Below, piece after piece: positions 3,333-25,047 of a DNA stretch of 35,422 bases. The position numbers and the translations under genes were made by a program. Below the pieces are notes generated by a model, which had not been told where the DNA came from, ran no database searches, and saw only the letters and a program-made list of their open reading frames with translations. This stretch comes from an uncultured Candidatus Peribacteria bacterium. Its GTDB lineage: Bacteria > Patescibacteriota > Gracilibacteria > BD1-5 > JAGOOR01. The stretch lies in assembly GCA_964456455.1 (NCBI GenBank), contig CAYVZT010000002.1, positions 1 to 35,422 on the forward strand, given 5' to 3'. Positions within the stretch are counted from its first letter, which is position 1. Every line of letters begins with the position of its first letter.

Positions 3333-4172
3333 TTATCCAAGCTCATTATTGCATGCTACAATTCTCCCACCGCAAAAGGTTTGTCCGGAATGTTCGGCAT
3401 ATAAAAAATCATTTCATCAAGGTAAAGGTGATTCAAATTTCAAACGTGAAACAGGATATAGCCTCTTTGCTATGTCAGAAATTAGTTGCCTTTTTATTCA
3501 ATTAATACCAAAAACACCTATTCATATTTCATTATTCATGAGATACAGCAATGCTCAAAGTGCTTCTTCCCTTGATATAAAGGTTCTATGTACTCATTCA
3601 GGAACAATTATTGGATCTTTATCTAACGTTTTCGACCACCTGTCAACCAAAAATTTTTCTGAAGGAACAATATTAAAAAATCGAATTATACGACTTCTTG
3701 AACGTCTCAAAATTTGCTCAGATAAAAATTTTGTTCTACCGTAGACATTGAAAGAAGTACAAGACATAGAACTCGATGCAAAAATAATTGTTGTATCGGG
3801 AGATGCGACATCGGATACATATTGTGTTGCAAAAGTATTATGTGCTAAAGCTTCTTTAACGTTATTTTCACACCATGGAACGCTCGTTTTAGCTGCTAAG
3901 TGAACTATAATTTGGGGATTAAATGTTCTTATAACTTGGGAAACTTGTTGTTTGTTTGCCACATCCATGCATTCACAGCCCTCGTTTCATAAACGATTTG
4001 TTGGTAAACAATTAATATTTAATTCCCTTAATTTACGAACCAATGCTCCACCAACAGATCCTGAGGCACCAGTAACCAAAATTCTCTTTCATAGCAAATT
4101 CGAAGTGTCTACTTGGAGTAATTCTGGAAATTCTTGACGGTCTAATATGGTCTCTAGAAATTGCTGCTCCAT
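3333..4172 (-). CDS. NAD-dependent epimerase/dehydratase (extended SDR) family protein
   Basis: Rossmann motif VTGASGSVGGALV and catalytic YGRTK. Continuous only with about 8 TGAs read as Gly. Ends in TAA at 3333-3335. The start is 6 nt downstream of the preceding gene's stop. Confidence 0.75.
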
Positions 4173-4681: not shown

Positions 4682-5584
4682 ATGACTGAGACTAATTTCA
4701 ATTCTACAACCGAAAAGGCTGACATCAGCGCGTATGAAAATACAGACCTTTCACAGCTCAACGCTCAAGTAGATGATACAAAACCAACTGAAGAGCGATT
4801 GGAGAAATTTCTCATACGAGTCGTTTTTACGGCAAAGGTCTTTGCCTGGATAGGCATATTTGCAGTGATTCTTTTGGGTCTCTACGGGTGGACTCGTAGT
4901 CAAAAACAAGATTCTTGGCTTATGAATCTCCCTCTCAGTATCGCTGGAAGCCCTGCTTGTACCTGGATGAACCGTGGATATGACGTAGGACTCAGAAAAG
5001 ACAGTGCTTTCCGAGACTATCTCACCAGTAAGTGAAAGACTTCTCTTGCTGACTTTATAGATAATGGACGTTGTCTCGCTCCTGATAGTATCACGACATG
5101 GCTTGAACTAGAAAAATCTCTCGCAAGTGATGAGCTTGCAAAGGCTTATGAAAAAATCATACCAAAGAAATTTCTCGGCACGACAGTGACTTCATCTCCT
5201 GAGCTCGATGTCATAGCAAGCCTGGCTCCATCTCATCGTATGCAACATGATGTTGTCCTACAGCTCATATCCGACACAACAGAAAGACTTTCTGAATCTG
5301 GAGCACGTATCACATGTCAGCAAGTACGATTTAGCGATTTAACTGCTGAGGCTCAGTGCCAAGTGACCACAAAAGCACCAATTCAACCGCGATCCAAAGC
5401 TATAGATTTTGTTAAATCTCTCAGCAATACTTCATCACTTCTCGTGATCTACCCGAGTATGCTCGATATGAGACTCGATGAGAAGACAAATTTTCTCACA
5501 ACAGAATTTAGTGTCCGAATGACCTATATACCATCAAGATACGAAGCGAATCAAATCAAAAAACTCACCTATGACAAACGATAA
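4682..5584 (+). CDS. Membrane-anchored protein, possible PilN/PilO-like pilus assembly component
   Basis: Fragments 4682..5035 and 5186..5584 share a frame and join across TGA 5033-5035 with no TAA/TAG between them. One TM helix (VVFTAKVFAWIGIFAVILLGLYGW). Sits directly upstream of pilB/pilC. Confidence 0.55.
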
Positions 5585-6836
5585 TCCTATCATTAATCTG
5601 AGAAATAGAGCCATAACATGGATCTCTATCGCTGTTGTATCACTCATCGGTGCATGGTGGATATTCACATTTTTTGGAGGTGCCAGCTCTCCTGAGATGC
5701 AGCATATACAAGAACTCAAAACAACACTTGAGCTCATAAAAAAAGAAGGTGCCATAACAACAAAAAACTGGGACGAGCTCACTGCAGAAGAAAGAAAAAC
5801 AGAAAGATGGAATACGATGACACGTCTTTCACCAACCATCCAAAAACTAGCGGGCATTTGAACACCGTCAGCTGGAAAGAATATCGTAACCATGAAAAAT
5901 ATCAGTACGAAGGTCGGAAGTGAAAATTACATTCCTTGGCTCGAAAAATCATGGACTGGTGATGCAGAAACATTTTTAACAAAAACACAATCTGACATCG
6001 CAGAAGTTATCCCTGTATTCACGGGTATATCCGAAGCGAATAGCACTCAGGATATCGCTGGTAAAATCACTCTCAAATCACTCAACGACTATATACAAAC
6101 AAATATTGTAGAAAAATATGGCCTCGCCAATGCATTTGGCCAGATAGGTATAGATCGTGTCAAATTCATGGAAGAAGCGCCAGAGGTATGAGTCTATGAT
6201 ATACCTCTCCGATTTGAAAAAGTACCAAATGAAAACGTCATCAATCTCCTCCAATTTCTCGGTAAAACCGGTGGTGTCAGAATCACAGAATCAGGAAAAA
6301 ATATCACTCTCGAACACATGAATCAAGAGCCCATAAAAACATCTGATGGAAGTCAGTCATCTCTCAAAAATCTCCTCATCACGGTCAAAGACATGAACAT
6401 CGCACCGACACGTCTCGACAATCAAGATGAAAAAAACATAAACATCAGCACCAAAACAAAAGGTCTCTGGGATGTAAACATCACACTTCAGTTCTATATA
6501 CGAGGTGTAAGTCGAGATCATATCGCAACTCTTGATGCGACTATCCTCTCTCTCCTAGACAAGGGTGGGTCAAAAAATTCTCTGATGGCTCAATGAAATA
6601 TGCTTCTCAAAGCATGTAATGGATGCTCTGAAGCTCCTCAGATCCGTGACATCATACACCTCCTTGAGCAAGCTCGTAGTGCTTATGATAGTTTTGTACT
6701 TGAGGAACGTGATCCAAAGAAAAACTTCTCTCCAATAGATGTCCTCCAGCACCGCACTGATCTCATGACAACACTTGAGACACTCCAACAAAAGCTCAAA
6801 ACTATGACTGCGCTTATCACCCCTTCTTCTGTCTAA
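5571..6836 (+). CDS. Membrane-anchored PilO-like pilus assembly protein (fusion of four track fragments)
   Basis: Fragments 5571.., 5892.., 6318.. and 6600.. are all in one frame, separated only by TGA at 5859-5861, 6189-6191 and 6594-6596. N-terminal TM helix. PilO-like segment IPLRFEKVPNENVINLLQFLGKTG. Its TAA lies 1 nt before the pilB ATG. Confidence 0.55.
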
Positions 6837-6837
6837 T

Positions 6838-8097
6838 ATGGCTTCTCTCGAAATACTTAAACAGGCAATATTCACGGGTGAAGACCCGGCGAAGGTGTGT
6901 GACCTCATGATTGTGGTCGCTATCGAAGCGCACGCATCAGATATACATCTCGAACCTCTCAATGATAAAGTACGTCTTCGTTATCGTGTTGATGGCGTCC
7001 TCACAGAAGTACTCGAATATCCCACCGTCAACCACCCTCAAATCGTCGCTCGATACAAAATCCTCGGTAATCTCAAGATGGACGAGACGCGTAAGCCTCA
7101 AGATGGACGTATCTCTCACGAGGTCGGTGATAAGGCATTTGATCTCCGTCTCTCTACTCTCCCTACTGTCCACGGAGAAAAGATAGTGATGCGTATCGTC
7201 GACAAGACAAAAAAAATCCCCGATCTCGAAAAACTCGGTCTCGAAGGAAAAAATAATGACATCATCAACCGTGCCATAGAACAGCCAAATGGCATCATCC
7301 TCAACTCAGGTCCTACTGGTTCTGGTAAATCGACGACGCTCTATGCGATCATGAAAAAACTCAACCAACCAAAGGTCAATATCATGACATTCGAAGATCC
7401 AGTCGAAATCGTGGTGGATGGGCTCAATCAGAGTCAGATTTTCCCAGATATCGGATATACATTTGCGACTGGTCTCCGTACCGCTCTCCGTCAGGATCCT
7501 GATATCATGATGGTCGGAGAAATCCGAGACCAGGAAACAGCCGATGTTGCTATCGAAGCATCTCTCACGGGTCACCTCGTACTCTCTACTATCCATACAA
7601 ATTCTGCCGCAGAAACGCTCACACGTCTCATCAATCTCGGAGTAAAAACATTTTTGCTTCCTGCAACAATCAATGCTATCATCGCTCAGCGTCTCGTACG
7701 ACGTATCAATCCAGAAAAGGCAAAACGAATCTCATTCTCAGAACTCGATATCAACCTCCAACAACGAGTCAAAAGTGTCATCGCGACGACTCCAAAAGAA
7801 GAAATCCGTGTTCGACTTACCGATGCTATCATGAAAGATCCAGGATTTCTCATCCCTGATATGACAAAAGTGGCGAATCCAGACCAAGCATACGAAGGAC
7901 GAATCGCTCTCTATGAAGTCATGGAAATTACTGCTGGAATCAAAGACATGATTATGCGTGAGGCTCCTGCGAGAGATATTTTTGGTGCAGCAGTACGTGA
8001 CGGAATGATCTCTCTCGAACAAGACGGTATTATCCGTGCTCTCCAATGAGTGACTACGCTCGAAGAAGTCTATGGTGCAGTAAGACAAGAGGTTTAA
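6838..8097 (+). CDS. pilB: Type IV pilus assembly ATPase PilB / GspE family
   Basis: Walker A GPTGSGKST, Walker B DPDIMMVGEIRD, His box TGHLVLSTIHTN, GspE N2-type LRLSTLPTVHGEKIVMRI. Reading TGA 8047-8049 as Gly restores the family C-terminus LQ-G-VTTLEEVYGAV. TAA at 8095-8097. Confidence 0.9.
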
Positions 8098-8109
8098 TAA
8101 TTATTTTTC

Positions 8110-9252
8110 ATGAGCAATCAAATCATCATTCTCTCCGAAAAATTTGAAGCACCAAAGTCAAAAATTCAAAAAACATGGTGGGAAGCTATCAATGATGCTA
8201 TTTTGACGAACCAAAAAGTACGACTCAAGGATAAAGTCACTTTTTACCGACTCCTCGCCACGATGGTGAATGCAGGTCTCACTGTCCTCCAAGCCCTGAA
8301 AGTCCTCCGTGATGAACAAAAAAATCCTGTCATGAAAAAAGTGCAGGATGCCATGATACAAGATATTCACTCTGGTCATAATCTCTCTGCAACACTTAAG
8401 ATGTTTCCAAAAAGCTTTTCTGATTCAGAAATAGCGATGATAGAATCGGGTGAAAAAACTGGCAAGCTCAATGTCGCCCTCCTCCAGCTCGCCGTACAAA
8501 TAGAAAAACTCTCTTCTCTTTCAAAGAAACTCATCGGAGCTCTCATATATCCAGCTCTTATCATCTGTGTCATGGTTGGTGTGGTATTTGTACTCATGTG
8601 GCAAGTGGTACCAAAATTGATTGGTATTTTCGCAGATTTTGGAGGCCTTCCCCCAGCGACTCAGATGCTTGTAGCAGCGAGTAATTTTGTCCAAAATTTC
8701 TGGTATCTCTTTTTTATACTTCCTTTTGCTCTCATCAGTTCATGGACAGCATGGAGAAAAACAGAACACGGACGGTATATGACGGATAAATTTCTCCTCA
8801 TGATACCTGGTGTCGGTACACTGTTACAAAAAATCATCGTCTCTCGTTTTGCTCGACTCCTCGCGAGTCTCATGAGTAGTGGAGTCTCTATCGTCGAAGC
8901 TCTCCGAATTATCTCGGGGGCAGTCGGAAATGAAGTGTATCGTCAGCGTATTCTCCTCCTCCGTGATGATGTCACTCGTGGTATCACGATGGGAAAATCC
9001 CTCGAAAACGACCCCCTCTTCCCTGATATGGTTACCCAGATGATCAAAGTAGGAGAAGAAACAGCCAAAATCGACCAAATCATCATCAAAGTAGCAGATT
9101 TTTACGATGAAGAAGTGGATGGTGCCGTGAGTTCCATCAATAAAATCATTGAACCCGTGATCATCGTCACCATGGCGGTATTTGTCGGCCTCATCGCCTA
9201 CGCTATCATGAGTCCTATCATGCAGCTCTCTGACGTGATTAGTCAGCAATAA
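8110..9252 (+). CDS. pilC: Type IV pilus platform protein PilC (GspF family)
   Basis: Two GspF-type repeats with three TM segments. Typical motifs: LATMVNAGLTVLQAL, FARLLASLMSSGVSIVEAL, MIKVGEETAKID. No internal TGA. Confidence 0.9.
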   Translation: MSNQIIILSEKFEAPKSKIQKTWWEAINDAILTNQKVRLKDKVTFYRLLATMVNAGLTVLQALKVLRDEQKNPVMKKVQDAMIQDIHSGHNLSATLKMFPKSFSDSEIAMIESGEKTGKLNVALLQLAVQIEKLSSLSKKLIGALIYPALIICVMVGVVFVLMWQVVPKLIGIFADFGGLPPATQMLVAASNFVQNFWYLFFILPFALISSWTAWRKTEHGRYMTDKFLLMIPGVGTLLQKIIVSRFARLLASLMSSGVSIVEALRIISGAVGNEVYRQRILLLRDDVTRGITMGKSLENDPLFPDMVTQMIKVGEETAKIDQIIIKVADFYDEEVDGAVSSINKIIEPVIIVTMAVFVGLIAYAIMSPIMQLSDVISQQ

Positions 9253-12200
9253 GCTCGTCTACTTCTTCTGCCCGACAGTACGCCACACGATGGTTAACAT
9301 AGGATACTGGAACTGGAGTAGCTCCGGTCTTTAATTTTTTGATAAATCGAGCTAAGAATTCATCATTAATATCAATTTCAGTCAGCCCTCTATCTCCGAA
9401 TGATTTTACTATTTCTGTCAAAATTTGGTCAACGCCAGATCCTGGGATAAACCCATCACGCTTACAACCATTCTTCATCACACCTTGCAAAATACCTTGA
9501 TCGGAAAGAGTTTTAATAACTCTCTGGCGCAGTATCTCTCGGCGCTCATGACCAACCTCACGATCACTGAAGCTGTCATAAGCATCACGTATTTTATCAA
9601 CTCCCGGTCTGACGACACCATGTTCTCAGTGAAAATGATACGTAGCTTCTCGGAGTAGAAGTGCAACATTACCCGACCCATGAGTTGATTGTGCCTGTCA
9701 CAATTCTGCTTCCAAATTATCTCGAGAGACATTTCGTATAATTAAAAATGTTCCATCTATTTTCTGAACAATAATTCGTGCTTTTTTGTTGCGCAAATCA
9801 CGCTTATAATCTCTTTTGAGTTTCACCAGGTCTTCTCTCGCACGAGTATCTTGATCAAGAGCAAAGAGTGTTCCGTCACCATTTTTCATGATGTTATAAA
9901 CAAAAGTGAGGAGTACATTTTCTATCCTTTGTCTTATTATTTGTCCATCTTTTTGAGGAGGATTATTCAGCCTGAATGAGACTACTGGCTGCAATGTCAG
10001 CACTGCTGACCAACCATTCATTTTGCTGAGAGTAACCGCCGTTGGAAAACCATTTTCATACCGTGCTGTAAAGAATCTATATCATGCTGTTTTACAAGTA
10101 GATGATAATCTCTCCATTTCAGCATTCCATTCAGCTTCACCATTTTTTCTTTTTTGTTTAAATGTATCAATTTTTTGATTAAGCGCCAACTTGAGATCTG
10201 CTGTATCGAGTGCTTCAGATAGAGAAAATCAGAGCGCAGTAAACTCCGCATCAATATCTTGAATTACTTTTTTAGCCGCCATTTCTTTTGCATCATCTTG
10301 TTCCTGTTTTACTCTGGCTCGTATCTTTTCTGCGAGAGCGATCATCATATCTTGAGCCTCTGGTTCAAGTACTCCAGATATGATCCCCGTATCAGTGATA
10401 GTCCATGATCTATGATGTGGTCGAACTTCGACTCATTCCTCATCCAATATCTGTAGTACAGATTGGATATGTTCATCTTCTAGGCGAATTGTGACAACAC
10501 CCTCAGTATATTCACCTTCTTGCTCATAGAATTCTTGGTGGTCTGAGAGTACCATGAGCGCAGTACTGAGACTTTGTGTTTCTTTATTTTTCTCTTCTTT
10601 TTCTTGATTTTCTTGACGCACTCTGACTCGTATTTCTTCTGCCAGAGACAGTATCACATCTCTCCCATTTTCTATTTCTGGAGTTATAGCCCCATCGTCG
10701 TCGACACTCCATTGTCTATGCTTTGGAAGTATTTTTGAAGCAGATGAAATATGTGACTCATCGAGCCGCAGAGTGACGACTCCATCCGCGTACACGCCTC
10801 TTGCTCGGTAAGCATCGCGATATGCACTCAATAGAGTAAGAGCAGCTTCCAGACTGGCTCTTTCTTTTTCTTCTTCGGTAGGCTCTGGCGCTCTAGATAC
10901 TGGCATCAGAGGCTCGGATGGCTTGTGCAAATAATTCGTTTCTAGAATAACTGTTTTTGTAGTTGTATTAATTTCGAATTCTCTCCCTTCTGGTGCAATA
11001 AAAGTCACTCTATAAACTATTTTTCCATTCTGCTGCAATGTTTCCTGTGGTACAGATATCATACCATCAGCTGGAAGTGGCATATTTTCATATATGAATG
11101 TATACTCTTTATCGCCAGGCATCTTGCGTGATACTGAGATGAGACTCCCCGCTGGATAACCAGTCATGAGAATCAACGAACAATCAATATACCCCGGCTG
11201 TTTCCTATCATGAAGTTCCAGTCCTACTAAAGTAGTATCGAGCTCAATTCTTTTTTCCAGATGAGCTGCTTTTATTCTTTCTTCCTCTAGTGTTCGAATA
11301 TCTTTAGGCGATAAAAATCGCCCCTCACATGCAGACGAAACACGTCCAGCAATACAACGACTGAGCTCAAGAACATAATTATTGAGTCTCTCGATCTCTT
11401 TTGCTTTATCAATTACCTTTATTCTATCATTCATTATATCAGTTATTCTGGCATTCACCTCAGCTCTTTTATTTTCCAAATCAGCATCTCCAAAGGTATT
11501 GAAATTTCGTGGCAATATATACTTTTCTACTTTTATTGCCCCATTCTGTGTTCCCTCTTCTTCTGATTGTAAGATAGAGGCCAGGTCATTCTCGTCAAAT
11601 AATTCTCTGAAAAATTTCCCTTCCACTGACAATGGTCGAGACGCTACATTTCTTCGCATTTCCTTATTTTCATCTAATAATCGTCGCCAAAGATAGAGAT
11701 ATGGTGTTGCAGTCAAAATATCCATCATCCCCCTATAGCAAGCGAGATGTGTGGCAGCAAGAAGTGATTTAAAAAAATCCATCTCATGTTGTCTTTTTGT
11801 TCTGTTAATTGTGACGAGATATTTCCGCAATGGGTCCTCACATTCCGGGATATCAAAAGTAACAAAATTTCACATAAATAACATAATCTCTGGCATATCT
11901 GTTGGCTGCAACTCAATCAAATAATAAAACAATGCACCCATTCCCTTGTCTTCCTTGTTTGGAGTCAATACTTGATCGATATGGGCATCGAGTTGTTCCT
12001 GTAGTCTGAGTGATTCAAAATACCCCGGAACAGCACTAGCGATCATTTTTTTTGTGTCCCATTTTCTTCTCGTGCCAATAAATCTTTTCTGCCTCACAAT
12101 TCCAGTACCTATTAATACATTATCTGGATGTGGGGTTATAAATGTACAGTAATAATTGGATGATAAAAATAAAAGATTTTGTGCATCTCTGCGTAGATTA

Positions 12201-12673
12201 TCGTGTACATCTGCAAAATCTACATCTTCAGTACTCTTGGCTGCCAAGAGGCGCTGAGTCAATGGAGTATTTCTCACAACTCATTTTTCGAGCATAAACA
12301 TCTGAAGCAGAAAGAACGGGAGAAATTTCCTTTTGTCATCAATCATTTCCTTCGAGATATGCATGATCATCCTCTCGAGATCAGGGCCATGTTCATCATA
12401 CATTTCCTGCATTTTTGAGCGTGCAAACTCAAACATCATTTTGTAATATGTAGCATAATCTCTATTACTGTTCAAGAGAAATTCCCCTTCCAACCCCTCG
12501 CAGTACGCATACAAATCATCAAAAAGTGTATCAAAAAGTTTTATCTTTTCTGGCTGAGAAATATGGGGGCTCTTTCTATAGGCATTGAGTCGGAGAACCT
12601 TTGGAATATCATCCAAGTTTATTTCCACTATTCTTTTACCTTCTTCTGATCTATTACTGGGCGCGTTTGACAT
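9239..12673 (-). CDS. Large hypothetical protein (1144 aa) with two tandem ~95-aa internal repeats
   Basis: Track ORFs 12281..12673, 11870..12277, 10433..11830, 9698..10021 and 9239..9490 all share one frame. Hand translation of the gaps finds only TGA (7 in total) and no TAA/TAG. ATG at 12673, TAA at 9239-9241. I recognise no family. Confidence 0.7.
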
Positions 12674-12684
12674 AATTGTCTCAT

Positions 12685-12711
12685 ATACTATAAAACATTC
12701 TTATATGTCAA
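12685..12711 (-). promoter_or_regulatory. Candidate sigma-70-type promoter of the 1144-aa ORF
   Basis: On the minus strand, TTGACA (12711-12706), a 15-nt spacer, then TAGTAT (12690-12685), 11 nt before the ATG. Confidence 0.3.
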
Positions 12712-12766
12712 TAAAAAGATGCCACAATAAATAAAGCAAAAAACACTATGGTATCGAGCTTTACTA

Positions 12767-13879
12767 CTAAATCCGAGCAGGTACTTTTTTTCTACTTTTT
12801 TTACGCTTTATTGGATAAGGCCTTTTTGTAGCAAAAATATCTGCAATAGCTCATCGTGTATAGAGTTGCACAACACGTGTTCACGAGCGACCAATTATAG
12901 CAGAGAGCTTTCGCGCCTTGATAAGCTGATCTATCACTCACTTTGATGTTCAAAATACTTTTTCCCAACCCGTGGCTGTATCAACGAGATCTGTCGAGTT
13001 TTCTCTCATATCTGCTCATATCTCTACCCCGTTCGGATCAGTCTTTCCTGCAACAGGAAGCGCAAGCCAATCATCCAAAGATTGGATCACTATGTCTGCC
13101 ACACTCTTGGCTACAATGCCTTGCACTACTCACACAATTTGTGATTCAGAAAACACACTTTGAATCCTCTTATTGGCAACAAAAACTTGTCCAGCAGGTT
13201 CTGCTCCCGCCATATAGGTACGTAGTCACCCGTCACTCATTTGTAGATATTGAGCCCAGCTTGGTATAGTCCCTATTCTCTGTCCTCTATCACCTGTTAG
13301 GTTGGTCAAAACAGGGAGATCCAATGATGTCATTCAGAGAAGATGTTGAAAGGCACTCAGGCGATACACTCGCAAGAATTGCGGAACTCAGACATCAGGT
13401 CTATATTTTGCTATTCGTATCCCCTGTTTATGCTCCAATTCTAGAGCACATCGATCTACGCGAGGCCATGTAATCTCTCCATGCATATTCACAAATCATT
13501 GTCGAGTGATAAATTCTGCCCCGTCAATCACACAAACTTGACGAGCATCAAGCTCTGGAAGTTTTGCCTGTTTGTACAATTTGAGACATGTATCCACTAT
13601 ATCCTTCTCAGAATACAACTCTTGTGTTGGTCTATTGGAGGCATCAAATCATGCAAATTTTGGTAACTCTTTTCCATCTATTTCTCGCAAAAGACTGGTA
13701 TGTGGTATACCATACAATTGTGACCAACTATGAAGAGTAGCATACTGGATACCTTTTTGGTCAAGTGAAAATCCACCACCAGAATATGTGATTTCTCAAT
13801 TCCCTCCTTCTGCACCAGTAGTAGTTGATACCGATTCTGATGCATGTGAATTTAGGCCTGATTCTATCTCATGTAACAT
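12767..13879 (-). CDS. Hypothetical protein with four excisionase/MerR-like (HTH_17-like) repeats and a basic tail
   Basis: 370-codon frame that is open only under table 25 (12 TGAs by hand count, no TAA/TAG); every line was checked by reverse complement. The pattern x-W-x2-(L/V/M)-(Y/F/H)-G-(I/T/E)-x4-(L/V)...K-L...G...(L/V)-(Y/F) recurs four times, e.g. YATLHSWSQLYGIPHTSLLREIDGKELP and TATGWEKVFGTSKGVIDQLIKARKLSAIIG. C-terminus KRKKSRKKVPARI. Missing from the standard-code track. Confidence 0.65.
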
Positions 13880-13935
13880 AAATATTTTAAATATAATAAA
13901 ATATTTATAATAAAGTCAATTTATAAAACCACCGG

Positions 13936-14928
13936 TTAGCTCGAATGAGCAATCTGGATACCACCATTCTGCATAGCTCTCATCACCGAGAGATCATGAC
14001 CGTGTCCGGCTGCAAACACCATAACTGTCCCAACAAATCGAGCTCCACCCTGAAGCGGTATACCATAGGCACCGAGTTTATCGAGGACTTCATGCATGAG
14101 AAGCTCGATATTTATGCCTCGAAAATCATATTCAGAACGAGGGTTTTCGATGCCTTTTTTACCGATAGATACAGTTCTGCTTGAATCAATATTTACTATT
14201 CTTTGAAAGACCGGCAAAGTATCTAGTATTCTCATGAGTTTACGACGAAAACCATAACTCGGAGTACGAGCCCCAGCTATGTAGCGCTGGATGACTTCGT
14301 CATTGATTTTGACTCGTGCCCTCTGAGTACCGATAGCTCCTGGATATGATACCATGACATCGACGATAAGCTCATTTCACCCTTCATCAGGCAATAAAAT
14401 AGCATACGATCATCTCTTATTCTCAAACTCGATTCTTGTTGGCTCTGCAACTGTAAAAGTTTTTCTTTTTCCCACGACAGACGTCTGACTTGGTTGCATC
14501 AGAACATCAGCATATTGCTGAACACAGTCTATCTTAGTGGGGAGCGATACCGAACGAAATGGAAATACTGAACTTCGGAGAATAATGTCTGCATCGATAC
14601 CAAGGCCTGCCAGGAGACCAACAACGTGCTCTAATACCTGCACTCGAGTTCGTCCAACGAGAAGACCAATATTATTTTTTCAAGGACTTACCGCAGAAAT
14701 ATCCAGAACTGTATGCGACTCATCATTAACGCATATTCCCGGCTTTCATGGCTGAGAACATGGAGAAAATCAGAGCTCCAGTGGACGCCTCCAAAACGTC
14801 GTTTGTTCTTGAAATAAAGCAGATTGTTCGAGCATCCTCTCTAGAGCCATGTTTCTACCAGGTTGATTTGTATTATCAAAGATAGGTACTGGGCGCTCTG
14901 GTATGTCTGCGACAGGGGTTATTTTCAT
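13936..14928 (-). CDS. LpxC-fold (UDP-3-O-acyl-GlcNAc deacetylase-like) zinc deacetylase paralog 2
   Basis: Fragments 14410..14643 and 13936..14355 plus upstream sequence join across 5 TGAs. LpxC signature segments: RVQVLEHVVGLLAGLGIDADIIL (compare E. coli [21 protein letters not shown]), AGARTPSYGF (ARTFGF), MHEVLDKLGAYG (HKMLDAIGDL) and AAGHGHDL (KSGHALN). The ATG at 14928 overlaps the end of the upstream paralog; ATG 15018 is an alternative start. Confidence 0.7.
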
Positions 14929-15959
14929 GTGAGAGGTAATATGAGATGTTTCAGTGCTGCCATACGGAAAACATGATTTGTATTCTCAAGAATAATCTTT
15001 CACTGAAAACGAGCTCATGCAAAAAATACCAATACCTCTCCCAATAAATCCAACACATTATGATACAAATGCTCATTTCCCCCAGCTCGAAACTCGGCTC
15101 ACATCATTCCTATAATGTCCTCTGGTGTATGACGATACCGGGCTCTTATGTAGGTCTTGTGGGTCATACCTGAGGATCCGAGATTAAAAAACCATAAGAG
15201 CACCTGAAGAGCAATAGAAAGTGTCAATCTTATAGCGGGCTTTTTATGAGTAGATGAGAGACGCATCATGGCTCTGGCATGCAGAAATTGAGAAATTTCA
15301 TTTTCTCATATTTCAATCGGCATCGAGTTTGGGCAATTTGGCATATCAGGCTGGAGAGCAGACTCGACTCGCACACGAAATTCACTACATGGTTCTATCG
15401 TCATTTTTCTCATTATACCATATTTATCATCGAATAATTCAAAAGCATTTTGACGTGTCACTTCTATGACCCTTCTTGTCTCCTCTTTATCAGAACAGTG
15501 CGGAAGTATTTGCTGCACAAATCACTCAATACCTGGTCAAGTAACTGGAATCCAGTAGGTATTTTTTTTAAATCAAAAAAATGGAAAATGGCTCGATGTG
15601 AGCGGCCCCTTGCAAGATGCGCCGATTTGTATGGTTATACCATTATCCAATCCGATAGCTCTCAAAGCACCGCAGAGATGCTCAAGAAGAAAAATCTGAA
15701 AATCATGCTCTGGAGAACGTAAAACGAGCATTCTGCCGAGACCAGAATCCATTGCCTCAATATGGTTGATACTATACGGTACTTTGACTCATTCAACTTC
15801 GAAAAATATACCCGGCACATCACTCGGAATAATATCAAAATACGCATCTTGTGGAGCAGTAGGGTCAAATGGTCGCCCCCTTACAGTTACTTTCTGTTTT
15901 AGGATTCTTGATGGAGGATTGAGAGATACAGGCAGTGATAAACTTTCTGGTGTATGCAT
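14919..15959 (-). CDS. LpxC-fold zinc deacetylase paralog 1
   Basis: 346-codon frame open under table 25 (9 TGAs); it contains track ORF 15306..15518. Segments FLLEHLCGALRAIGLDNGITIQI, WIPVTGPGIEGFV (compare EIPIMDGSAAPFV), FLHARAMM, LYHNVLDLLGEV and NTNHVFR match the LpxC Zn-ligand and catalytic positions (E-H, H..D, H). TAA at 14919-14921. Confidence 0.75.
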
Positions 15960-16011
15960 GAAAGCAGATTATGTTGATAATTTTATTTTTTCAATAATTA
16001 ATTAAATATAT

Positions 16012-16038
16012 TTGACAATAAAACAATTTATATATTTT
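16012..16038 (+). promoter_or_regulatory. Candidate promoter of the alpha/beta hydrolase gene, near-leaderless geometry
   Basis: TTGACA (16012-16017), a 15-nt spacer, then TATTTT (16033-16038), 6 nt before ATG 16045. Lies in the AT-rich divergent region shared with the LpxC-like operon. Confidence 0.35.
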
Positions 16039-16044
16039 GAAGGC

Positions 16045-16842
16045 ATGAGAAAAACCGTTATCGAAATGAAAAATGACTCTGGTGCACCATCTCAAATTCA
16101 AATCACTGGAACAAATATAAGTAATCTCGTATTTGCACAAGTTTGACTGGGTGAAGTTATAGAAGGACATCAATTTATCAGATCTCTCGAAAAAGAAACT
16201 GAAAAATGAACATTTAGCCTTGCAACCATGAATCATCCACTTCATGCACCTGGCAATATACGAACAGATAGCTCTGAATTCAAGTTAGCACTCTGTCGAG
16301 CATCAACACGACGAGCGTTGCAAAAAATTCTGTGAATTTCCGAAGTAAAAAAAGTAGTGTGAATAGGTTATAGTCTAGGATTCTGGTCTATTTTTCAAGC
16401 ATTGTGCACGATGGATAAAGACCCGAAAATAAAAGGCATTCTCGCCAAATCAGGTATTCATTCATATGAGAGAATCCTTCTCCGATTTTTAGGAAAATAT
16501 GGATACCCTCAAAATAAACCACAAGCATGGGCTCAACTATTTAAAGAATTTCAGATGGACGAAACAAGTTGAATATGACAGATGCCAGTCCTCCCAGATA
16601 ATCCTATACCAATGCATAGAAATTTCTTACGTTGAGCAAGAAATCTGAAAGAACAATCTTGATGTCCATATGATTTAGAATGTTGGCATGGAACATATGA
16701 TCACTGGTCTACACCGGAAGACATAACAACTCTCTCACCAAGAAAAATTCACACATTTGAATTATGACACAGCTTGCGACCAAATAGAGACATAAATCGC
16801 GCCATTTTTGCAGCAGCGGAAAAGATTTTTATAGCAGACTAA
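16045..16842 (+). CDS. Alpha/beta-fold hydrolase (esterase/lipase-like)
   Basis: 265-codon frame open only under table 25 (9 TGAs; checked codon by codon). Nucleophile elbow VV-G-IGYSLGF (GxSxG), acid region WHGTYDHW, catalytic His in FEL-G-HSL. TAA at 16840-16842. Missing from the standard-code track. Confidence 0.75.
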
Positions 16843-17785
16843 TTTTATCACTGAGAACGATACACATCTCCTCGTATCTTGCCCCATATTTTCCAGGAAT
16901 ATAAATACCTGGCTCGATCGTGATCACCATTCCTTCTTGAAGAGTTTCATTAGATTTGGAGGAAATTCCTGGGGCTTCATGAATATCGATACCAACACCA
17001 TGGCCGAGTGAATGAGTGAAATATGTCTCATATTTCCCAAGCATAGTTCGGGATTTTTTGTCTATATCAGCTATCTTCATACCCGGCTTAGCCCAGCGAA
17101 TGATCTCCTGTGTCACATAGGTCACGAGCTCTCCTATGATTCTCGCTTCTTCTGATAGATTTTCTTGATAAACCATTCGTGTCATATCTGAACAATAGCC
17201 ATCATAGATAAGTCACATATCGAGAAGTATGCTCTCTCCTGGTTTTAATGCTCTCTCTGTCGGACTATGATGTGGTATGGCGGAGTGCTCTCCAAAAGCC
17301 ACAATAGGAGGAAAACTCGGACCCGTTGCGCCCTGCTCCAACTGAATAATTTGTATTTTGCGAGCCACCTCTCGCTCAGTCACGCCGACCTGAAGAGATG
17401 GCAAGAGAGACTGGTAGACATTTTTATTTTTCTGCTGTGAGATTCTGAGTTTTTGTATTTCTTCTGGAGTTTTTATGATTCTTTTTTTGGTGATAGGACT
17501 CGCTTTCATGGTGAATTTTGGACCAAATTGTTCGAGTTTTTCTTTGAGTGATATGGTGAGATATTCTGGATCTACCTCGATAGATTCATACTTTTTTAGC
17601 TCGTCTTTCCACTGTCCTCTATCATCTATAATGCGATAATGTTCAGGATCAAATAATCCACTTGTTCGCATATCACAGAAAATAATCGGTTTCGCAGCTG
17701 CCAATAAAATCATAATCTCTCCTACATCATGTGAGCGGACTCCAGTGAGATAGAAAATATCAGATGGTGAGAGAATGAGATGCAT
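16829..17785 (-). CDS. M24 family Xaa-Pro aminopeptidase/dipeptidase
   Basis: Fragments 17213..17863 and 16829..17185 share a frame and join at TGA 17213-17215, giving DM-G-LIYDGYCSDMTR. Metal-ligand motifs HSLGHGVGIDIHE and ITIEPGIY. The likely start is ATG 17785 (MHLILSPSDIFYLTG). Confidence 0.85.
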
Positions 17786-17856
17786 AAAAAATGGAGGAAA
17801 GAGAGTTCTGGAAAGAATAATCGAGCCATTATTTTTTTGAAAAGTCTTCTTTTTTC

Positions 17857-17885
17857 TTGCCAAAATAATAAAAATTGCCTAGAAT
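17857..17885 (+). promoter_or_regulatory. Candidate promoter of the pilin gene
   Basis: TTGCCA (17857-17862), a 17-nt spacer, then TAGAAT (17880-17885), 31 nt upstream of ATG 17917. Confidence 0.5.
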
Positions 17886-17916
17886 ACTCCCGTTTATTAT
17901 ATTTTGTTTCCTTTCT

Positions 17917-18435
17917 ATGAAAAATCAAAAAGGTTTTACACTCGTGGAATTGATGGTCGTACTGGCGATTATTGCTATCCTCGCTACCTCTGGTATCTCT
18001 CAGTATGGTAAATTTATCAAGTCAGCTCGCGACACTACTCGTATCGCTGACCTCGGCGCTATCAATGTCGTCATTCTCGATTCTATCCAGTCGACTGGTA
18101 TAGTCCCTGAAAAGGCATCTGACTTGGCCGACAAAATCAAAGATGTCGCTGGTAAAAAACTGATCGATAAACTCAACGGGACATCCGCATGTCTCAAAAA
18201 AGATGGAACCGTGACACCATGTGGATACAAATATGCTACTTGTGATGGTCGAACAGGATATATCCTGGCTACCACATTTGAAAGCACAAATAATCTGACA
18301 AAGTATGAAAAAGATGATGTCAGTACTTCTGACCCTACTGTGCTCAGCCAAGACCTCTATGAACTCGGTACTTGCAATGCCATCGATGCTGGAGGACCGA
18401 TGACGGTCATATACGACCCGACAGAAAAAGCATAA
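17917..18435 (+). CDS. Type IV pilin (prepilin-type N-terminal cleavage/methylation domain)
   Basis: Class III signal MKNQKG/FTLVELMVVLAIIAILA with Glu at +5. 172 aa. Followed by a terminator. Confidence 0.85.
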   Translation: MKNQKGFTLVELMVVLAIIAILATSGISQYGKFIKSARDTTRIADLGAINVVILDSIQSTGIVPEKASDLADKIKDVAGKKLIDKLNGTSACLKKDGTVTPCGYKYATCDGRTGYILATTFESTNNLTKYEKDDVSTSDPTVLSQDLYELGTCNAIDAGGPMTVIYDPTEKA

Positions 18436-18451
18436 TATCTCTCTAGATTTT

Positions 18452-18477
18452 ATCCCGCCTTTTGGTGGGATTTTTTA
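18452..18477 (+). terminator. Intrinsic terminator after the pilin gene
   Basis: Hairpin atcccgcc/ggtgggat (one G-U pair), loop tttt, then T6. Confidence 0.7.
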
Positions 18478-18550
18478 TGGTTAAATTTTAAATTTGCATT
18501 TTTAAAAAATTATTTATAGTAACGAAAATTATTTATTCAGTAATAATGCT

Positions 18551-18745
18551 ATGAATAGTCATGGGCAAGCATGGACCATCTCTACTATGTGTGGAGAAAA
18601 TTACTACCACAATAACATGGTAGACCCCCCTGAATCTCTCAGAAGAGCTTTTGGCATACCGACGAATTCTACTGTGACCAATATATCATCTCATACATCT
18701 GCGAGCGCAGTCCACCTACTCTTAAAAGAAGAAGAGGGTCAATAA
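18551..18745 (+). CDS. Small ORF (64 aa) or non-coding transcript upstream of valS
   Basis: ATG..TAA ORF between an AT-rich region and a hairpin plus terminator. The composition is not convincingly protein-like. Confidence 0.25.
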   Translation: MNSHGQAWTISTMCGENYYHNNMVDPPESLRRAFGIPTNSTVTNISSHTSASAVHLLLKEEEGQ

Positions 18746-18772
18746 AGACTCACTCATCCTCTTTCATCCCAC

Positions 18773-18803
18773 AAAAATCCGCTTTTTCGAGCGGATTTTT
18801 TTG
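18773..18803 (+). terminator. Intrinsic terminator 58 nt upstream of valS
   Basis: Hairpin atccgc(18777-18782)/gcggat(18791-18796), flanked by an A-run and T7. Confidence 0.7.
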
Positions 18804-18860
18804 CATTTCCTGGACAGACCATAGAATAATCACATTCTCGTTACTTTAAGTCTCTTCACT

Positions 18861-21521
18861 ATGGAATTTCCAAAGGTCTACACCCCCTCTGAATTTGAAT
18901 CCTCTCTTGCCAAAATGTGGGAAGAAAAAGGCCTCTACGCACCACAAAAATCTCGCACAGGGAAAACATTTTATATCCCTCTTCCTCCGCCAAATGTCAC
19001 GGGCGTACTCCATACTGGACACGCTCTCATGCTCGCTCTCCAGGATGTCATGACACGATATCACCGTATGAAGGGCGATGAAACACTCTGGGTGCCTGGG
19101 ACAGATCATGCAGGCATCGCCACACAAAATGTCGTTGCAAAAGCTTTGTCAAAAGATGGCATACGTCGTGAAGAACTCGGGCGCGAAAAATTCGTCGAAA
19201 AAATCTGGGAATGGAAAGAAACTTCTGACAAAACTATCACCGATCAGATGCGCATGATGGGAGCAAGTGTTTCGTGGGATCATGAGCGTTTTACTCTCGA
19301 TGAAGCAAATAATAAGCTCGTCACCGATACATTTATAAAGCTCTACAATGATGGAATCATCTACCGTGGAGAATACATGGTCAACTACTGTCCGAAAGAT
19401 AAAACCGTTATCTCAAAATCAGAAATCGAATACCGAGAAGAGGCAGGATTTTTGTATGAAATCGCATACTTTGTCTCTGGAGCTGACAAAGAACTCATCG
19501 TCGCGACTACTCGTCCTGAGACACTCCTCGCCGATCAGGCTATCGCTGTTCATCCAAAGGATAAACGCTACAAAAAACTCATCGGTAAAACGGCTATCCT
19601 CCCCATCGCAAACAGAAAAATCCCCATCATCGCTGACGAGATGGTCGATATGGATTTTGGTACTGGTGCGGTAAAGATCACTCCTGCACACGACCCAAAC
19701 GATTTTGAAACAGGCAAACGACACAATCTCCCCCTCGATTATCGTGTCCTCGATAACAATGGTGTGATGATGAAGCACACAGGTGACTTCGCAGGAAAAA
19801 AAGAGATGGAAGCACGTGAGATGATGATCGAGATGCTTCGTGCACGAGGCAATCTCATGAAGGTCACTCCTCACACATCTCAGGTTGGATACTCTGAGCG
19901 TGGTGGTGTCCGTGTACAGACTATCGTCTCGACACAGTGGTTCGTCGATAGCAAAAAACTCGCAGAAAAAGTCATGGCTGGTTGGGCAAAAAAAGAATTC
20001 GAGATTATCCCCTCTCGCTATGGTGAGATATTTGAAACCCTCATGAGCAATCTCCACGAATGGTGTATCAGTCGTCAGCTCTGGTGGGGTCATCAGATAC
20101 CAGCCTACTATGACAAAGAAGGGAATCTCCTCGGTGTCACAGATGATCCGAGCAAACTCATAAAAAAATATGGTGCAGAAAATGTCGTCCGCGATGAAGA
20201 TGTCCTCGATACTTGGTTCTCTTCCGCTCTCTGGCCTTTCTCTGTCCTCGACTGGACTTTTGACGAACCTGGGAAACTGTTTAAGAAATTTTATCCAGCA
20301 CAAGTCCTCGAAACTGGTCATGATATCCTCCTTTTTTGGGTCGTGAGGATGCTCCTCTTTGGGTATGGTCTCACAGGTCAGACACCATTTAAGACGGTGT
20401 ATCTCCATGGTCTCGTGACCGATGATCAGGGTAGGAAATTCTCCAAATCTCTCGGAAATGGTATCGATCCGATAGAAGTCATCAAACAGTATTCTGCCGA
20501 TGCGCTTCGATTGTCTCTCATCGTCGGAAATACTCCTGGGAATCCATTTCGATTTTCTCTCGACCTCGTAAAAAATAATCAGACATTTCTGAATAAGCTC
20601 TGGAATGTAGCACGATTTGTCTGGATGAATGTCGGAGGAGAAAAGAAAATCGAAGTCGATACTGATGTCTCAAAGCTCGAAAAAACACTCACGAAAAACT
20701 GGAGCAAACTCCTCGACTACGAGCGATGGATACTCACGAGACTCAAGAGAACAAATCTCGATGTGACTCGCGGTATGGAAGAATATGATTTCTCTATGAT
20801 GGGAGAAAAACTCATGTCATTTACTCGTGATGAATTCGCGGATTATGCTATCGAGTGTTTCAAGCTCTCAAAAGACGAATCAAAATATGGAAAAGAAGTC
20901 ATGATGTATACCCTCCTGACACTGCTCAAGCTCTGGCATCCCTATATCCCATTTGTCACCGAGGCACTCTCAGGCATCCTCGTACCAAAAAAGACGATTA
21001 TCGATGCCGAGTGGCCAGAGTGTCCGTTTGAGATCGATACAGAAAGTGAAGAACTGATCAAATCGGTCTTCGAAGTCGTGAAAACTATCCGCACTATCCG
21101 TGGAGATCGAAAGATTAAGCCAGGAGAAGCAGTCGGCGTCGTCATCTATGCGAATCCTCGTGATCGTGCTGTCCTCGAGCGAAATATCGCCCTCATCGCT
21201 GGTCTCGGAAAAGCGAGTGAAGTCGAGTTTACCCTCACAAAAGACGGTCTTTCTCGAGAAAAATACACCTATGGTATGGCTGGAGAAATCGAGGTCTTCG
21301 TCGATACGAGTGCTTGTAGCCATGACGATGATATCGAGCGTCTCGAAAAACTCATCGCAGAAAAAGAGGACTATGTACGAACTCTCGAAATAAAACTCAT
21401 GGATCCTACTTTCGTGAATAAAGCACCAGAAAATGTCATCCGTCTCACGCAAGAAAAGAAAGAAGTGACACTCCGACAAATCGAGAAGGCACGGGAGGAA
21501 TTAAAGCAGTATAAGGGATAG
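18861..21521 (+). CDS. valS: Valine--tRNA ligase
   Basis: 886-aa uninterrupted ORF. HIGH region PNVTGVLHTGHAL, KMSKS region KFSKSLGN, C-terminal coiled coil. No in-frame TGA. Confidence 0.97.
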   Translation: MEFPKVYTPSEFESSLAKMWEEKGLYAPQKSRTGKTFYIPLPPPNVTGVLHTGHALMLALQDVMTRYHRMKGDETLWVPGTDHAGIATQNVVAKALSKDGIRREELGREKFVEKIWEWKETSDKTITDQMRMMGASVSWDHERFTLDEANNKLVTDTFIKLYNDGIIYRGEYMVNYCPKDKTVISKSEIEYREEAGFLYEIAYFVSGADKELIVATTRPETLLADQAIAVHPKDKRYKKLIGKTAILPIANRKIPIIADEMVDMDFGTGAVKITPAHDPNDFETGKRHNLPLDYRVLDNNGVMMKHTGDFAGKKEMEAREMMIEMLRARGNLMKVTPHTSQVGYSERGGVRVQTIVSTQWFVDSKKLAEKVMAGWAKKEFEIIPSRYGEIFETLMSNLHEWCISRQLWWGHQIPAYYDKEGNLLGVTDDPSKLIKKYGAENVVRDEDVLDTWFSSALWPFSVLDWTFDEPGKLFKKFYPAQVLETGHDILLFWVVRMLLFGYGLTGQTPFKTVYLHGLVTDDQGRKFSKSLGNGIDPIEVIKQYSADALRLSLIVGNTPGNPFRFSLDLVKNNQTFLNKLWNVARFVWMNVGGEKKIEVDTDVSKLEKTLTKNWSKLLDYERWILTRLKRTNLDVTRGMEEYDFSMMGEKLMSFTRDEFADYAIECFKLSKDESKYGKEVMMYTLLTLLKLWHPYIPFVTEALSGILVPKKTIIDAEWPECPFEIDTESEELIKSVFEVVKTIRTIRGDRKIKPGEAVGVVIYANPRDRAVLERNIALIAGLGKASEVEFTLTKDGLSREKYTYGMAGEIEVFVDTSACSHDDDIERLEKLIAEKEDYVRTLEIKLMDPTFVNKAPENVIRLTQEKKEVTLRQIEKAREELKQYKG

Positions 21522-22542: not shown

Positions 22543-22929
22543 ATGTCCCAAACTCTTACCTTTTGTATCAATCTCCCTGAAGCACACAAAGCAATCGAAT
22601 GGTATAAAAATGTCTTTGGTGCTGTCGTCGAGATGCAACACGACGATGAAGCAAGCGGCAAACTCTATCATGCCAATCTCCGATTCGGTGAGACACTGAT
22701 ATTCTGCTGTGAAGAACTCTGTATTCCTGGAGTGAATAGTCCACGAACACTCGGTGGAGCACACATGTCTATCAGTATCGAGGTAGCAAACCCTGACGAA
22801 ATCTTCGCGAAAGCTCTCGAAGCTGGCGCAGAAGAAGTCTCTCCTGTCGCTGATCAGACATGGGGCATGCGTTCTGGCACCGTTCGTGACCCGTTTGGTT
22901 ACAAATGGAGCATTTTTAAGCCTCTGTAG
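22543..22929 (+). CDS. VOC (glyoxalase/bleomycin-resistance/PhnB-like) family protein
   Basis: 128 aa. PhnB-like pattern AIEWYKNVFGA...HANLRFGETLIF...VRDPFGYKWSI. Confidence 0.85.
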   Translation: MSQTLTFCINLPEAHKAIEWYKNVFGAVVEMQHDDEASGKLYHANLRFGETLIFCCEELCIPGVNSPRTLGGAHMSISIEVANPDEIFAKALEAGAEEVSPVADQTWGMRSGTVRDPFGYKWSIFKPL

Positions 22930-24628: not shown

Positions 24629-24645
24629 GAGATATGATGAAGATT

Positions 24646-24990
24646 TTAGGCTGGTACTTTATCTGTCACTTTTGAGAGACCAATCATATCAAATATATAC
24701 TGTGTTTTGGGATGGACACGCTTGAAGGATATGGTCTTCCCTGTTCGATGTGTACGAGCGATAAATTCTGTGAGATAGGCCAGTGTCGTCGAGTTGGTGT
24801 AGCTGAGTTTTGAGAAATCACAGTCAATATGCTTATAGTCGTGCTTTTTCTCTATAGTATGGGTGAGTTCTGCAAAAGCTTCGTCAGCATTGGTCTCATC
24901 GAGTTCACCGGCGATGATGAGCTCGAGCTTGTCGTGATATTGCTTTCGGACCTGAATTGTATATGGTGTATGAAAAGCATGTACTGACAT
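24646..24990 (-). CDS. STAS domain protein (anti-sigma-factor antagonist-like)
   Basis: 114 aa. SpoIIAA-like pattern LELIIAGELDETNADEAF...IDCDFSKLSYTNSTTLAYL...ISFKRVHPKTQYIFDMIGL. Confidence 0.8.
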   Translation of the reverse strand: MSVHAFHTPYTIQVRKQYHDKLELIIAGELDETNADEAFAELTHTIEKKHDYKHIDCDFSKLSYTNSTTLAYLTEFIARTHRTGKTISFKRVHPKTQYIFDMIGLSKVTDKVPA

Positions 24991-25047
24991 AAAGATGAAT
25001 CTAGGAAGTAAAACTTAACAAGCATATTATGAATTATATTTTACATT

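Follow-up and report, generated by a model that had tools for sequence, protein, structure and literature searches.

A probable flexible accessory locus between pilC and an M24 peptidase gene in a genus of code-25 Gracilibacteria

Introduction

Do five genes that sit together inside a type IV pilus neighborhood work together as one system? The question is raised by a 35,422-nt stretch of contig CAYVZT010000002.1 from an uncultured member of the Gracilibacteria (the whole stretch is called the window here), in which a block of five genes lies between pilC on one side and an M24 peptidase gene and the pilin gene on the other. A first-pass annotation of the window had proposed the block as a candidate multi-gene system. 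Comparison with related lineages showed that the five genes are not kept as a set, and the interval is probably a flexible accessory locus of one Gracilibacteria genus that uses genetic code 25, not a single five-component system. Gracilibacteria are uncultivated, UGA-recoded and host-dependent, and their lineage-specific genes are mostly unstudied.

When open reading frames (ORFs) were called under code 25, five intact ORFs filled positions 9239 to 16842 as the first-pass annotation had said, and its minus-strand gene order, divergent plus-strand hydrolase gene, pilC end at 9252 and pilin at 17917 were recovered as well. The genes, called here big, HTH370, LpxC2, LpxC1 and abH, and the features around them are as follows.

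8110-9252, plus strand: pilC (T2SSF, PF00482), conserved left flank
9239-12673, minus strand: big, 1144 aa
12674-12766, minus strand: gap upstream of big, 93 nt, 74% AT, with TTGACA at 12706-12711
12767-13879, minus strand: HTH370, 370 aa
13880-13935, minus strand: gap upstream of HTH370, 56 nt, 86% AT
13936-15018, minus strand: LpxC2, Pfam PF03331
14919-15959, minus strand: LpxC1, LpxC-like paralog below the Pfam cutoff
15960-16044, no strand: divergent intergenic region between LpxC1 and abH, with a TTGACA hexamer on the plus strand at about 16013-16018
16045-16842, plus strand: abH, with GxSxG and a Ser-Asp-His motif
16829-17785, minus strand: M24 peptidase (Pfam E value, 3e-59), conserved right flank
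17917-18435, plus strand: type IV pilin, with N_methyl motif
18452-18471: terminator-like hairpin after the pilin gene (terminator scan)

Results

Gene content of the interval differs among related lineages

Loci of relatives were fetched with flanking proteins free of TGA codons and were reanalyzed by tblastn under code 25. The anchors were pilC and pilin, by exact sequence; pilC was scanned against GTDB representative genomes and JGI metagenomes, and homologs of HTH370 and LpxC2 were also traced to their contigs. For each relative, only about 10 kb on either side of the anchor gene was visible. In at least six samples, independent assemblies contained the window sequence itself at 100% identity or close to it. 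The flanks of congeners were syntenic, with NifU, two membrane-protein genes, pilB and pilC on the left and the M24 peptidase, pilin and ValRS genes on the right. pilC was 81 to 88% identical among congeners, and the M24 peptidase gene, which falls outside the variable set, was at its position in every congener whose contig extends that far. Between these same flanks, eight different subsets of the interval genes were found across ten related lineages.

Window and L002: big, HTH370, LpxC2, LpxC1 and abH
L182: big, LpxC2, LpxC1 and abH
L180 and L181: big, LpxC2 and LpxC1
L010: LpxC2 and LpxC1
L008: big and abH
L007: big and an unrelated 205-aa ORF
L102: big alone
L097 and L100: HTH370 homolog alone (the L100 contig stops before M24)

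One further locus, L009, carries a big homolog beside pilC on a contig that ends inside the gene, and it was not counted among the lineages. The order (pilC, big, HTH, LpxC2, LpxC1, abH, M24) was constant in all lineages. Each module occurred without the others in at least one lineage, and LpxC1 and LpxC2 alone were inseparable (five of five lineages). With eight subsets in ten lineages, the proposal that the five genes form one multi-gene system did not survive the co-occurrence check. Nor was the neighborhood random: the same four families recur at the same locus and in the same order. That the block consists of lineage-specific genes was confirmed.

A rough single-gene neighbor-joining (NJ) tree of pilC placed differing subsets in sister lineages. 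The intergenic gaps of the relatives contained no detectable pseudogene remnants of lost modules. Distant Gracilibacteria with the same pilB-pilC pair carried neither these genes nor a pilin gene within 10 kb, and in some other candidate phyla radiation (CPR) bacteria (L018, L111 and L112) the pilin gene lies downstream of pilC, at a distance of about 70 nt to about 1.5 kb. Compared with the conspecific strain, the block genes had all frames intact and dN/dS ratios of 0.25 to 0.42 (flanks, 0.11 or less), which indicates that the genes are real. The retained copies compared between strains are under purifying selection.

In L097, where the HTH370 homolog is the sole interval gene, it ends (2190-2226 of that locus) in "...KATAD*," with a stop embedded in the 3' end of pilC that is the same stop as that of big in L007 and L009 ("TTAD"); big of the window uses the corresponding embedded stop and ends in "IAD." The L097 ending is compatible with a deletion that fused the HTH370 homolog to the last codons of a lost big, and the shared stretch is too short for proof.

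Recombination replaces segments of big and LpxC2

Homologous recombination replaces gene segments of this locus within and between species. Against the conspecific strain L002, the region was 95 to 100% identical in nucleotide sequence save for two sharply bounded tracts. The first (9250-10400) covers the last ∼350 residues of big at 57 to 63% nucleotide identity, and the second (14400-15000, minus strand) covers the N-terminal ∼200 residues of LpxC2 at 69 to 75%. In both tracts dS was saturated (1.5 to 4.1) and dN/dS was 0.10 to 0.33 (for LpxC2 codons 101 to 200, dS was 2.0 and dN/dS was 0.12); the C-terminal modules of big in the two strains were 45 to 57% identical in amino acid sequence over most of their length. 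Saturated dS together with low dN/dS indicates that the tracts are old alleles brought in by recombination. They do not reflect decay, and recent positive selection in the variable tracts was rejected on the dN/dS values of 0.1 to 0.3.

Exchange between species was seen with L181, which is a different species, with a nucleotide background of 60 to 88% identity and an N-terminal part of big that is 42 to 65% identical at the protein level. Over a ∼600-nt tract at 9750-10350, exactly where L002 differs, L181 was 90 to 100% identical to the window in nucleotide sequence, and residues 801 to 900 and 901 to 1000 of big were 98% and 89% identical in amino acid sequence. In a three-way alignment the switch point fell exactly after LAEKIRARVKQEQ (after KQEQ). 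Between L007 and L180 the pattern in big was reversed, the N-terminal part being 19 to 36% identical and the C-terminal part 84 to 94%. The window and L181 share the C-terminal allele of big and not the allele of the N-terminal half of LpxC2, and co-inheritance of these two segments was rejected on that basis. Hypermutation by a diversity-generating retroelement was also rejected: there was no reverse transcriptase domain among the scanned ORFs of the window and no template-like repeat in 8000-19000, and the variable tracts are 0.6 to 1.1 kb long with saturated synonymous divergence.

LpxC1 and LpxC2 are probable zinc amidase paralogs

The first-pass annotation had called two LpxC-like genes, and both calls hold. 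LpxC2 matched PF03331 over residues 107 to 349 with 39.7 bits (cutoff, 27; E value, 5e-10); LpxC1 scored 25.9 bits, just under the 27-bit cutoff, and aligned over its full length with LpxC2 and its homologs. The conserved residues are E130-H131, H309, D313 and H339 in LpxC2 and E93-H94, H300, D304 and H329 in LpxC1. The E-H pair, HxxxD and the later His were invariant in all four sequences of the alignment (A3), and they aligned with the zinc ligands (His, His and Asp) and the catalytic Glu and His of LpxC structures in the Protein Data Bank (PDB), including those of P. aeruginosa (5u39) and E. coli. LpxC2 homologs in L010, L180, L181, L182 and L183 were 52 to 66% identical, and LpxC1 adjoined LpxC2 in all five lineages that have either. 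LpxC2 is best described as a putative divergent LpxC-fold zinc amidase and LpxC1 as a second, more divergent paralog.

The two genes had been reported to overlap. The overlap is real, but it amounts to 100 nt only when LpxC2 is read from its first ATG; from the start used by the homologs (M31, at 14928) the stop and start overlap by 10 nt at 14919-14928, ATGAAAATAA. A 10-nt overlap was also obtained from the ORF coordinates in L010 and L180.

The pair differs from known LpxC in several respects. Known LpxC is one gene, whereas the window has two tandem overlapping paralogs. Both are far below the score of the NCBIfam equivalog PRK13188 (20.8 and 16.5 bits against a cutoff of 465), so that equivalog level was not reached. 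The Lys next to the second zinc His, presumably the UDP-binding K239, is replaced by Glu in LpxC2 and by Asn in LpxC1. No other lpx genes were found among the ORFs of the 35-kb window. The host is a CPR bacterium and so belongs to a group in which lpxC and lipid A synthesis have been described as missing (PMC5220378). On score, on the replaced Lys and on the lipid A pathway, functional equivalence to the LpxC of lipid A synthesis was not indicated. The subfamily was seen in no other genus. When JGI metagenomes were scanned with the LpxC2 alignment, no relative was recovered, and among the papers searched none named both LpxC and Gracilibacteria.

big is a modular protein apparently restricted to the genus

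Homologs of big at the same position in L007, L008, L102, L180 and L181 had 982 to 1152 aa and 17 to 64% identity. No match to big was found in Pfam, NCBIfam, PADLOC, PHROGs or PDB, profile searches of Pfam and PDB included. A HMMER search of 1.84 billion representative proteins with a 449-aa fragment of big free of TGA codons gave 14 matches, all of them short fragments (38 to 74% identity). No homolog was found among the 8000 candidates of a full-length search, which were probably filled by low-complexity, Glu/Lys-rich word matches. Judged from these searches, big is an orphan restricted to the genus. Hydropathy analysis indicated no signal peptide or transmembrane segment in any of the five proteins.

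The giant ORF had been described as repeat containing, and two ∼100-aa units were indeed found (BLASTP, 41% identity; E value, 3e-25), the second copy closing with the motif LAEKIRARVKQEQ at 10298-10336. An AlphaFold2 model of residues 298 to 746 (mean pLDDT, 72.6) contained helical segments, long coiled-coil-like helices and a confident beta-sandwich. Three parts of big can be delimited.

10913-11200, minus strand: beta-sandwich domain, residues ∼492 to 587, pLDDT 78 to 96, with helical and coiled-coil regions before it
10280-10870, minus strand: tandem ∼100-aa repeat, residues 602 to 696 and 697 to 798
9242-10297, minus strand: exchangeable C-terminal module, residues 793 to 1144

The structure search with Foldseek that had been advised for each protein was run on the big fragment. 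It gave no significant PDB match, only Ig/Fn3/transthyretin-like and coiled-coil similarities, and against BFVD the TM scores were 0.3 or lower among the top-ranked matches.

abH and HTH370

The GYSLG nucleophile elbow attributed to abH is present at residues 108 to 112. S110, D219, H242 and GxSxG were invariant in three orthologs, those of the window, L182 (69% identity) and L008 (35 to 38%). abH had no Pfam, NCBIfam, PADLOC or PHROGs match; its similarities to Abhydrolase_3 (E value, 0.032, in one of three members) and to PDB 2xmz (E value, 0.15, at the elbow) were weak. abH shares GxSxG and the Ser-Asp-His order with the alpha/beta-hydrolase serine hydrolases (Abhydrolase_3 and the MenH-like 2xmz) and differs from them in having no significant profile match. 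abH is a probable Ser-Asp-His alpha/beta hydrolase.

The C-terminal tail of HTH370 is basic (RKKSRKK). The protein matched nothing in Pfam, NCBIfam, PADLOC or PHROGs, and only two homologous clusters were found among 5.8 billion proteins. It had been described as a protein with four helix-turn-helix repeats. Three of the four repeats proved weakly related, but repeat 2 matched none and HTH_psq stayed below threshold, so four repeats are not established. By hhalign the relationships were weak (repeats 1 and 3, E value, 1e-3; 1 and 4, 0.14; 3 and 4, 0.19; repeat 2, none), and HTH_psq matched repeat 1 only, with E values of 0.018 to 0.12, below the cutoff. The AlphaFold2 model, built from two sequences, had a pLDDT of 34.5 and was unusable. 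DNA binding by HTH370 is possible.

Gaps, overlaps and borders of the block

The 56-nt and 93-nt gaps given by the first-pass annotation were exact in length (86% and 74% AT). Its TTGACA-type promoter in the 93-nt gap was confirmed as far as the hexamer goes (12706-12711, minus strand), but a consensus scan called no site there. The 56-nt gap contains a promoter-like TTGACT-18-TATATT at 13919-13890, upstream of HTH370, which matches the consensus and no more; the region was not enriched in promoter-like sites (29, against 27.6 in shuffles).

Both 14-nt convergent overlaps of the block, with pilC and with the M24 peptidase gene, were also exact. The stop codon of the convergent gene big is supplied by the 3' end of pilC, ATTAGTCAGCAATAA, and this junction sequence is kept in L002, L007 and L009. 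Convergent overlaps of 14 nt occur three times in the window (9239-9252, 16829-16842 and 22916-22929), with the pattern TTA-N8-TAA/TAG, and the first two both yield a C-terminal "IAD." When one of these two is reverse complemented they match at 12 of 14 positions, and they were considered as inverted-repeat recombination sites. This was rejected because the abH end is not conserved in L008 and L182 and because the third 14-nt overlap, at 22916-22929, is of unrelated sequence. The likeness of the first two, which is not conserved in relatives, is probably due to chance.

The view that the block is not an obvious mobile island was upheld: there was no tRNA, no significant border repeat and no integrase-type family among the scanned ORFs, and Rfam gave no match in the window. 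Likewise, no defense system had been recognized, and a PADLOC run matched none of the five proteins. Searches of 50,697 phage records by tblastn with big and HTH370 and scans of IMG/VR with big, LpxC2 and abH gave no match. The GC content of the block was 0.396, compared with 0.411 for the window. Because each block gene has 6 to 12 in-frame TGA-Gly codons and the GC content is like that of the window, the genes are taken to be native and not imported.

Genetic code and setting of the window

Summed over six frames with overlaps counted, ORFs of at least 150 codons rose from 19 kb under table 11, which breaks the region into short ORFs, to 64 kb once TGA was taken as sense. In-frame TGA coincided with conserved glycines in GxGxPG of GidB and DxG of the M24 peptidase, which we take to be the characteristic motifs of these proteins. 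The ORF gain and the position of TGA at conserved glycines fit code 25 of Gracilibacteria and Absconditabacteria, and on this evidence TGA is a glycine codon across the whole window (1-35422). The highly conserved pilC, pilin, ValRS and NusA genes are free of TGA, and the block genes and the sigma factor gene have 6 to 12 each. Public gene calls of the organism are mostly made with table 11, which splits genes into fragments, and on a few Logan contigs code 4 was used instead, so that Trp stands in place of Gly. Since database gene calls of the lineage are fragmented, the homolog counts given above are lower bounds.

Elsewhere the window carries ordinary chromosomal genes (ValRS, NusA, sigma-70, GidB, FtsJ, an ABC transporter and others). 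Upstream of pilB, at 4682-6836 (plus strand), lie two conserved genes of 300 and 452 aa that match nothing in Pfam. Near residue 45 each shows a single hydrophobic segment, and they evolve fast (52 to 68% identity between congeners). They may encode pilus alignment or platform proteins of the lineage. The window has one pilin gene, followed in its species by a small 64-aa ORF at about 18551-18745, and two tandem pilin paralogs, 59 to 67% identical to the window pilin, occur in L008 (12923-14047) and L102 (5520-6610).

Farther out, an NAD-dependent epimerase/dehydratase-like gene (Polysacc_synt_2, RmlD_sub_bind) lies at 3333-4172 (minus strand), with a fatty-acid desaturase gene on one side and NifU on the other; no kilobase of the window has a lower GC content than the one in which it sits (0.361). 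By tblastn it was present in L001, L003 and L004, which are this strain, and was found neither in the conspecific L002 nor at this position in L007, L008, L009, L180 and L181; it represents a second strain-specific insertion or deletion. Two candidate ORFs overlap on opposite strands at 24634-25011 (plus) and 24646-24990 (minus). The plus-strand ORF is probably spurious; the minus-strand ORF encodes 114 aa, has no TGA and carries a STAS domain in the precomputed annotation of L087. A 412-aa protein encoded at 29531-30769 (minus strand) has a weak, subthreshold patatin-like phospholipase match (E value, 4.7e-4) and is another candidate lipid-acting hydrolase in an organism that is presumably lipid scavenging.

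Discussion

The comparisons point, with reasonable though incomplete assurance, to a flexible accessory locus between pilC and the M24 peptidase gene. The locus would hold four modules in fixed order, each dispensable there: big, HTH370, the LpxC2-LpxC1 pair and abH. On the simplest reading the subsets would have arisen by differential loss from a fuller ancestral set, with repeated gain as the alternative. The one true multi-gene unit would be LpxC1 and LpxC2, whose products are probably zinc-dependent amidases or deacetylases made by coupled translation. Since CPR bacteria are reported to be without lipid A synthesis, a substrate outside lipid A is suggested, and the pair most likely acts on another N-acetylated or N-acylated sugar or lipid, host-derived substrates being possible. 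By its motifs abH would be a serine esterase or lipase-type hydrolase, and HTH370 may be a nucleic-acid-binding repeat protein with its own promoter. big is pictured as a cytoplasmic multidomain scaffold, with a helical region, a coiled coil, a beta-sandwich and tandem repeats. Divergent alleles of its ∼350-aa C-terminal module would be kept and passed between species, which points to selection for diversity, e.g., through interaction with a host, a phage or a competitor.

Several points weigh against the flexible-locus reading. With only about 10 kb seen on each side of an anchor, the "missing" members could be encoded elsewhere. The relatives are all metagenome assemblies, in which chimeric assembly is conceivable. 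A loose functional link could lie behind the repeated appearance of the same four families, identically ordered, at one locus. The tree behind loss as the simplest reading is a single-gene NJ tree, no pseudogene remnants were found, and the biochemical roles are all drawn from motifs.

The recurrence of these families in fixed order, across many lineages, also favors a single cooperating system (defense, effector delivery or envelope modification) of which the partial versions are decayed or reduced variants; the four minus-strand genes are tightly packed, and strain-level hypervariability is typical of conflict systems. We nevertheless regard one system as improbable: every module occurs without the others somewhere, the retained genes are intact and those compared are under purifying selection, PADLOC found no match, separate AT-rich gaps lie upstream of HTH370 and of big, and the alleles of the big C-module and of the LpxC2 N-terminal half are not co-inherited (window and L181). 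The locus resembles defense islands and variable hotspots in its strain-level hypervariability and in content that varies between core genes at a fixed position, and differs from them in drawing on the same four families in fixed order, again with no PADLOC match. The position between pilC and pilin, conserved across the genus, and the stop overlap with pilC, kept in several lineages, would suit accessory factors of the type IV pilus, such as cytoplasmic regulators or pilin- or envelope-modifying enzymes; type IV pili also have a central part in the contact of CPR bacteria with their hosts (PMC11452946). This, too, seems quite unlikely, as L010, L097 and L100 keep pilB and pilC without big (L010 also pilin; the L097 and L100 contigs end earlier), abH, HTH or the LpxC pair is missing from other lineages, no pilus-related domain was found in any of the five proteins, and distant Gracilibacteria with pilB-pilC have none of the genes within 10 kb. 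Least probable is that the pilus cluster contains what is left of a mobile element (an island, a prophage or an inserted plasmid). Variable content between conserved core genes, the sharp recombination boundaries and the short pilC-pilin distance in L018, L111 and L112 suggest insertion, but there is no integrase, tRNA or flanking repeat, the composition is that of the flanks, the genes depend on TGA-Gly decoding, and neither the phage records (big and HTH370) nor IMG/VR (big, LpxC2 and abH) gave a match.

A different possibility concerns big itself, which may be a polymorphic toxin-like protein or effector, with a conserved body, an exchangeable C-terminal "warhead" and neighboring enzymes in accessory or protective roles. 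As in polymorphic toxins (CdiA-CT and Rhs), its C-terminal module follows a conserved motif, with a sharp junction after LAEKIRARVKQEQ, deeply divergent alleles downstream and horizontal transfer between species; the opposite divergence between L007 and L180 indicates that the gene is modular. The differences make this reading doubtful, in our estimate: neither a signal peptide nor a transmembrane segment was found in big, nor any known domain for secretion or trafficking, and no toxin domain was recognizable in Pfam or PDB; no small immunity-like ORF lies 3' of it, where the convergent pilC overlap leaves no room, and its alleles are homologous (45 to 57% over most of the module) rather than unrelated folds. 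A related idea, which we hold to be a small but real chance, is that big represents, in CPR episymbionts, a polymorphic interaction factor of a new kind and that the LpxC pair, with or without abH, dismantles or salvages host envelope glycolipids such as lipid A precursors. If so, big would be an effector, toxin or recognition protein that carries no secretion signal of a known kind, species that occur together would exchange its C-terminal module, and the locus would be an optional host-exploitation toolkit beside the pilus genes.

The findings have several consequences. Under the standard table-11 calling of public databases these genes are broken up and hidden from searches for homologs. 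LpxC-fold enzymes that look catalytically intact are documented here in a group reported to be without lipid A synthesis. The locus amounts to a natural experiment, in which eight content variants and exchangeable segments between identical anchors separate genes that are functionally linked, the LpxC pair, from those that are merely neighbors. An orphan protein with a module exchanged between species is a candidate for interaction with a host or a competitor.

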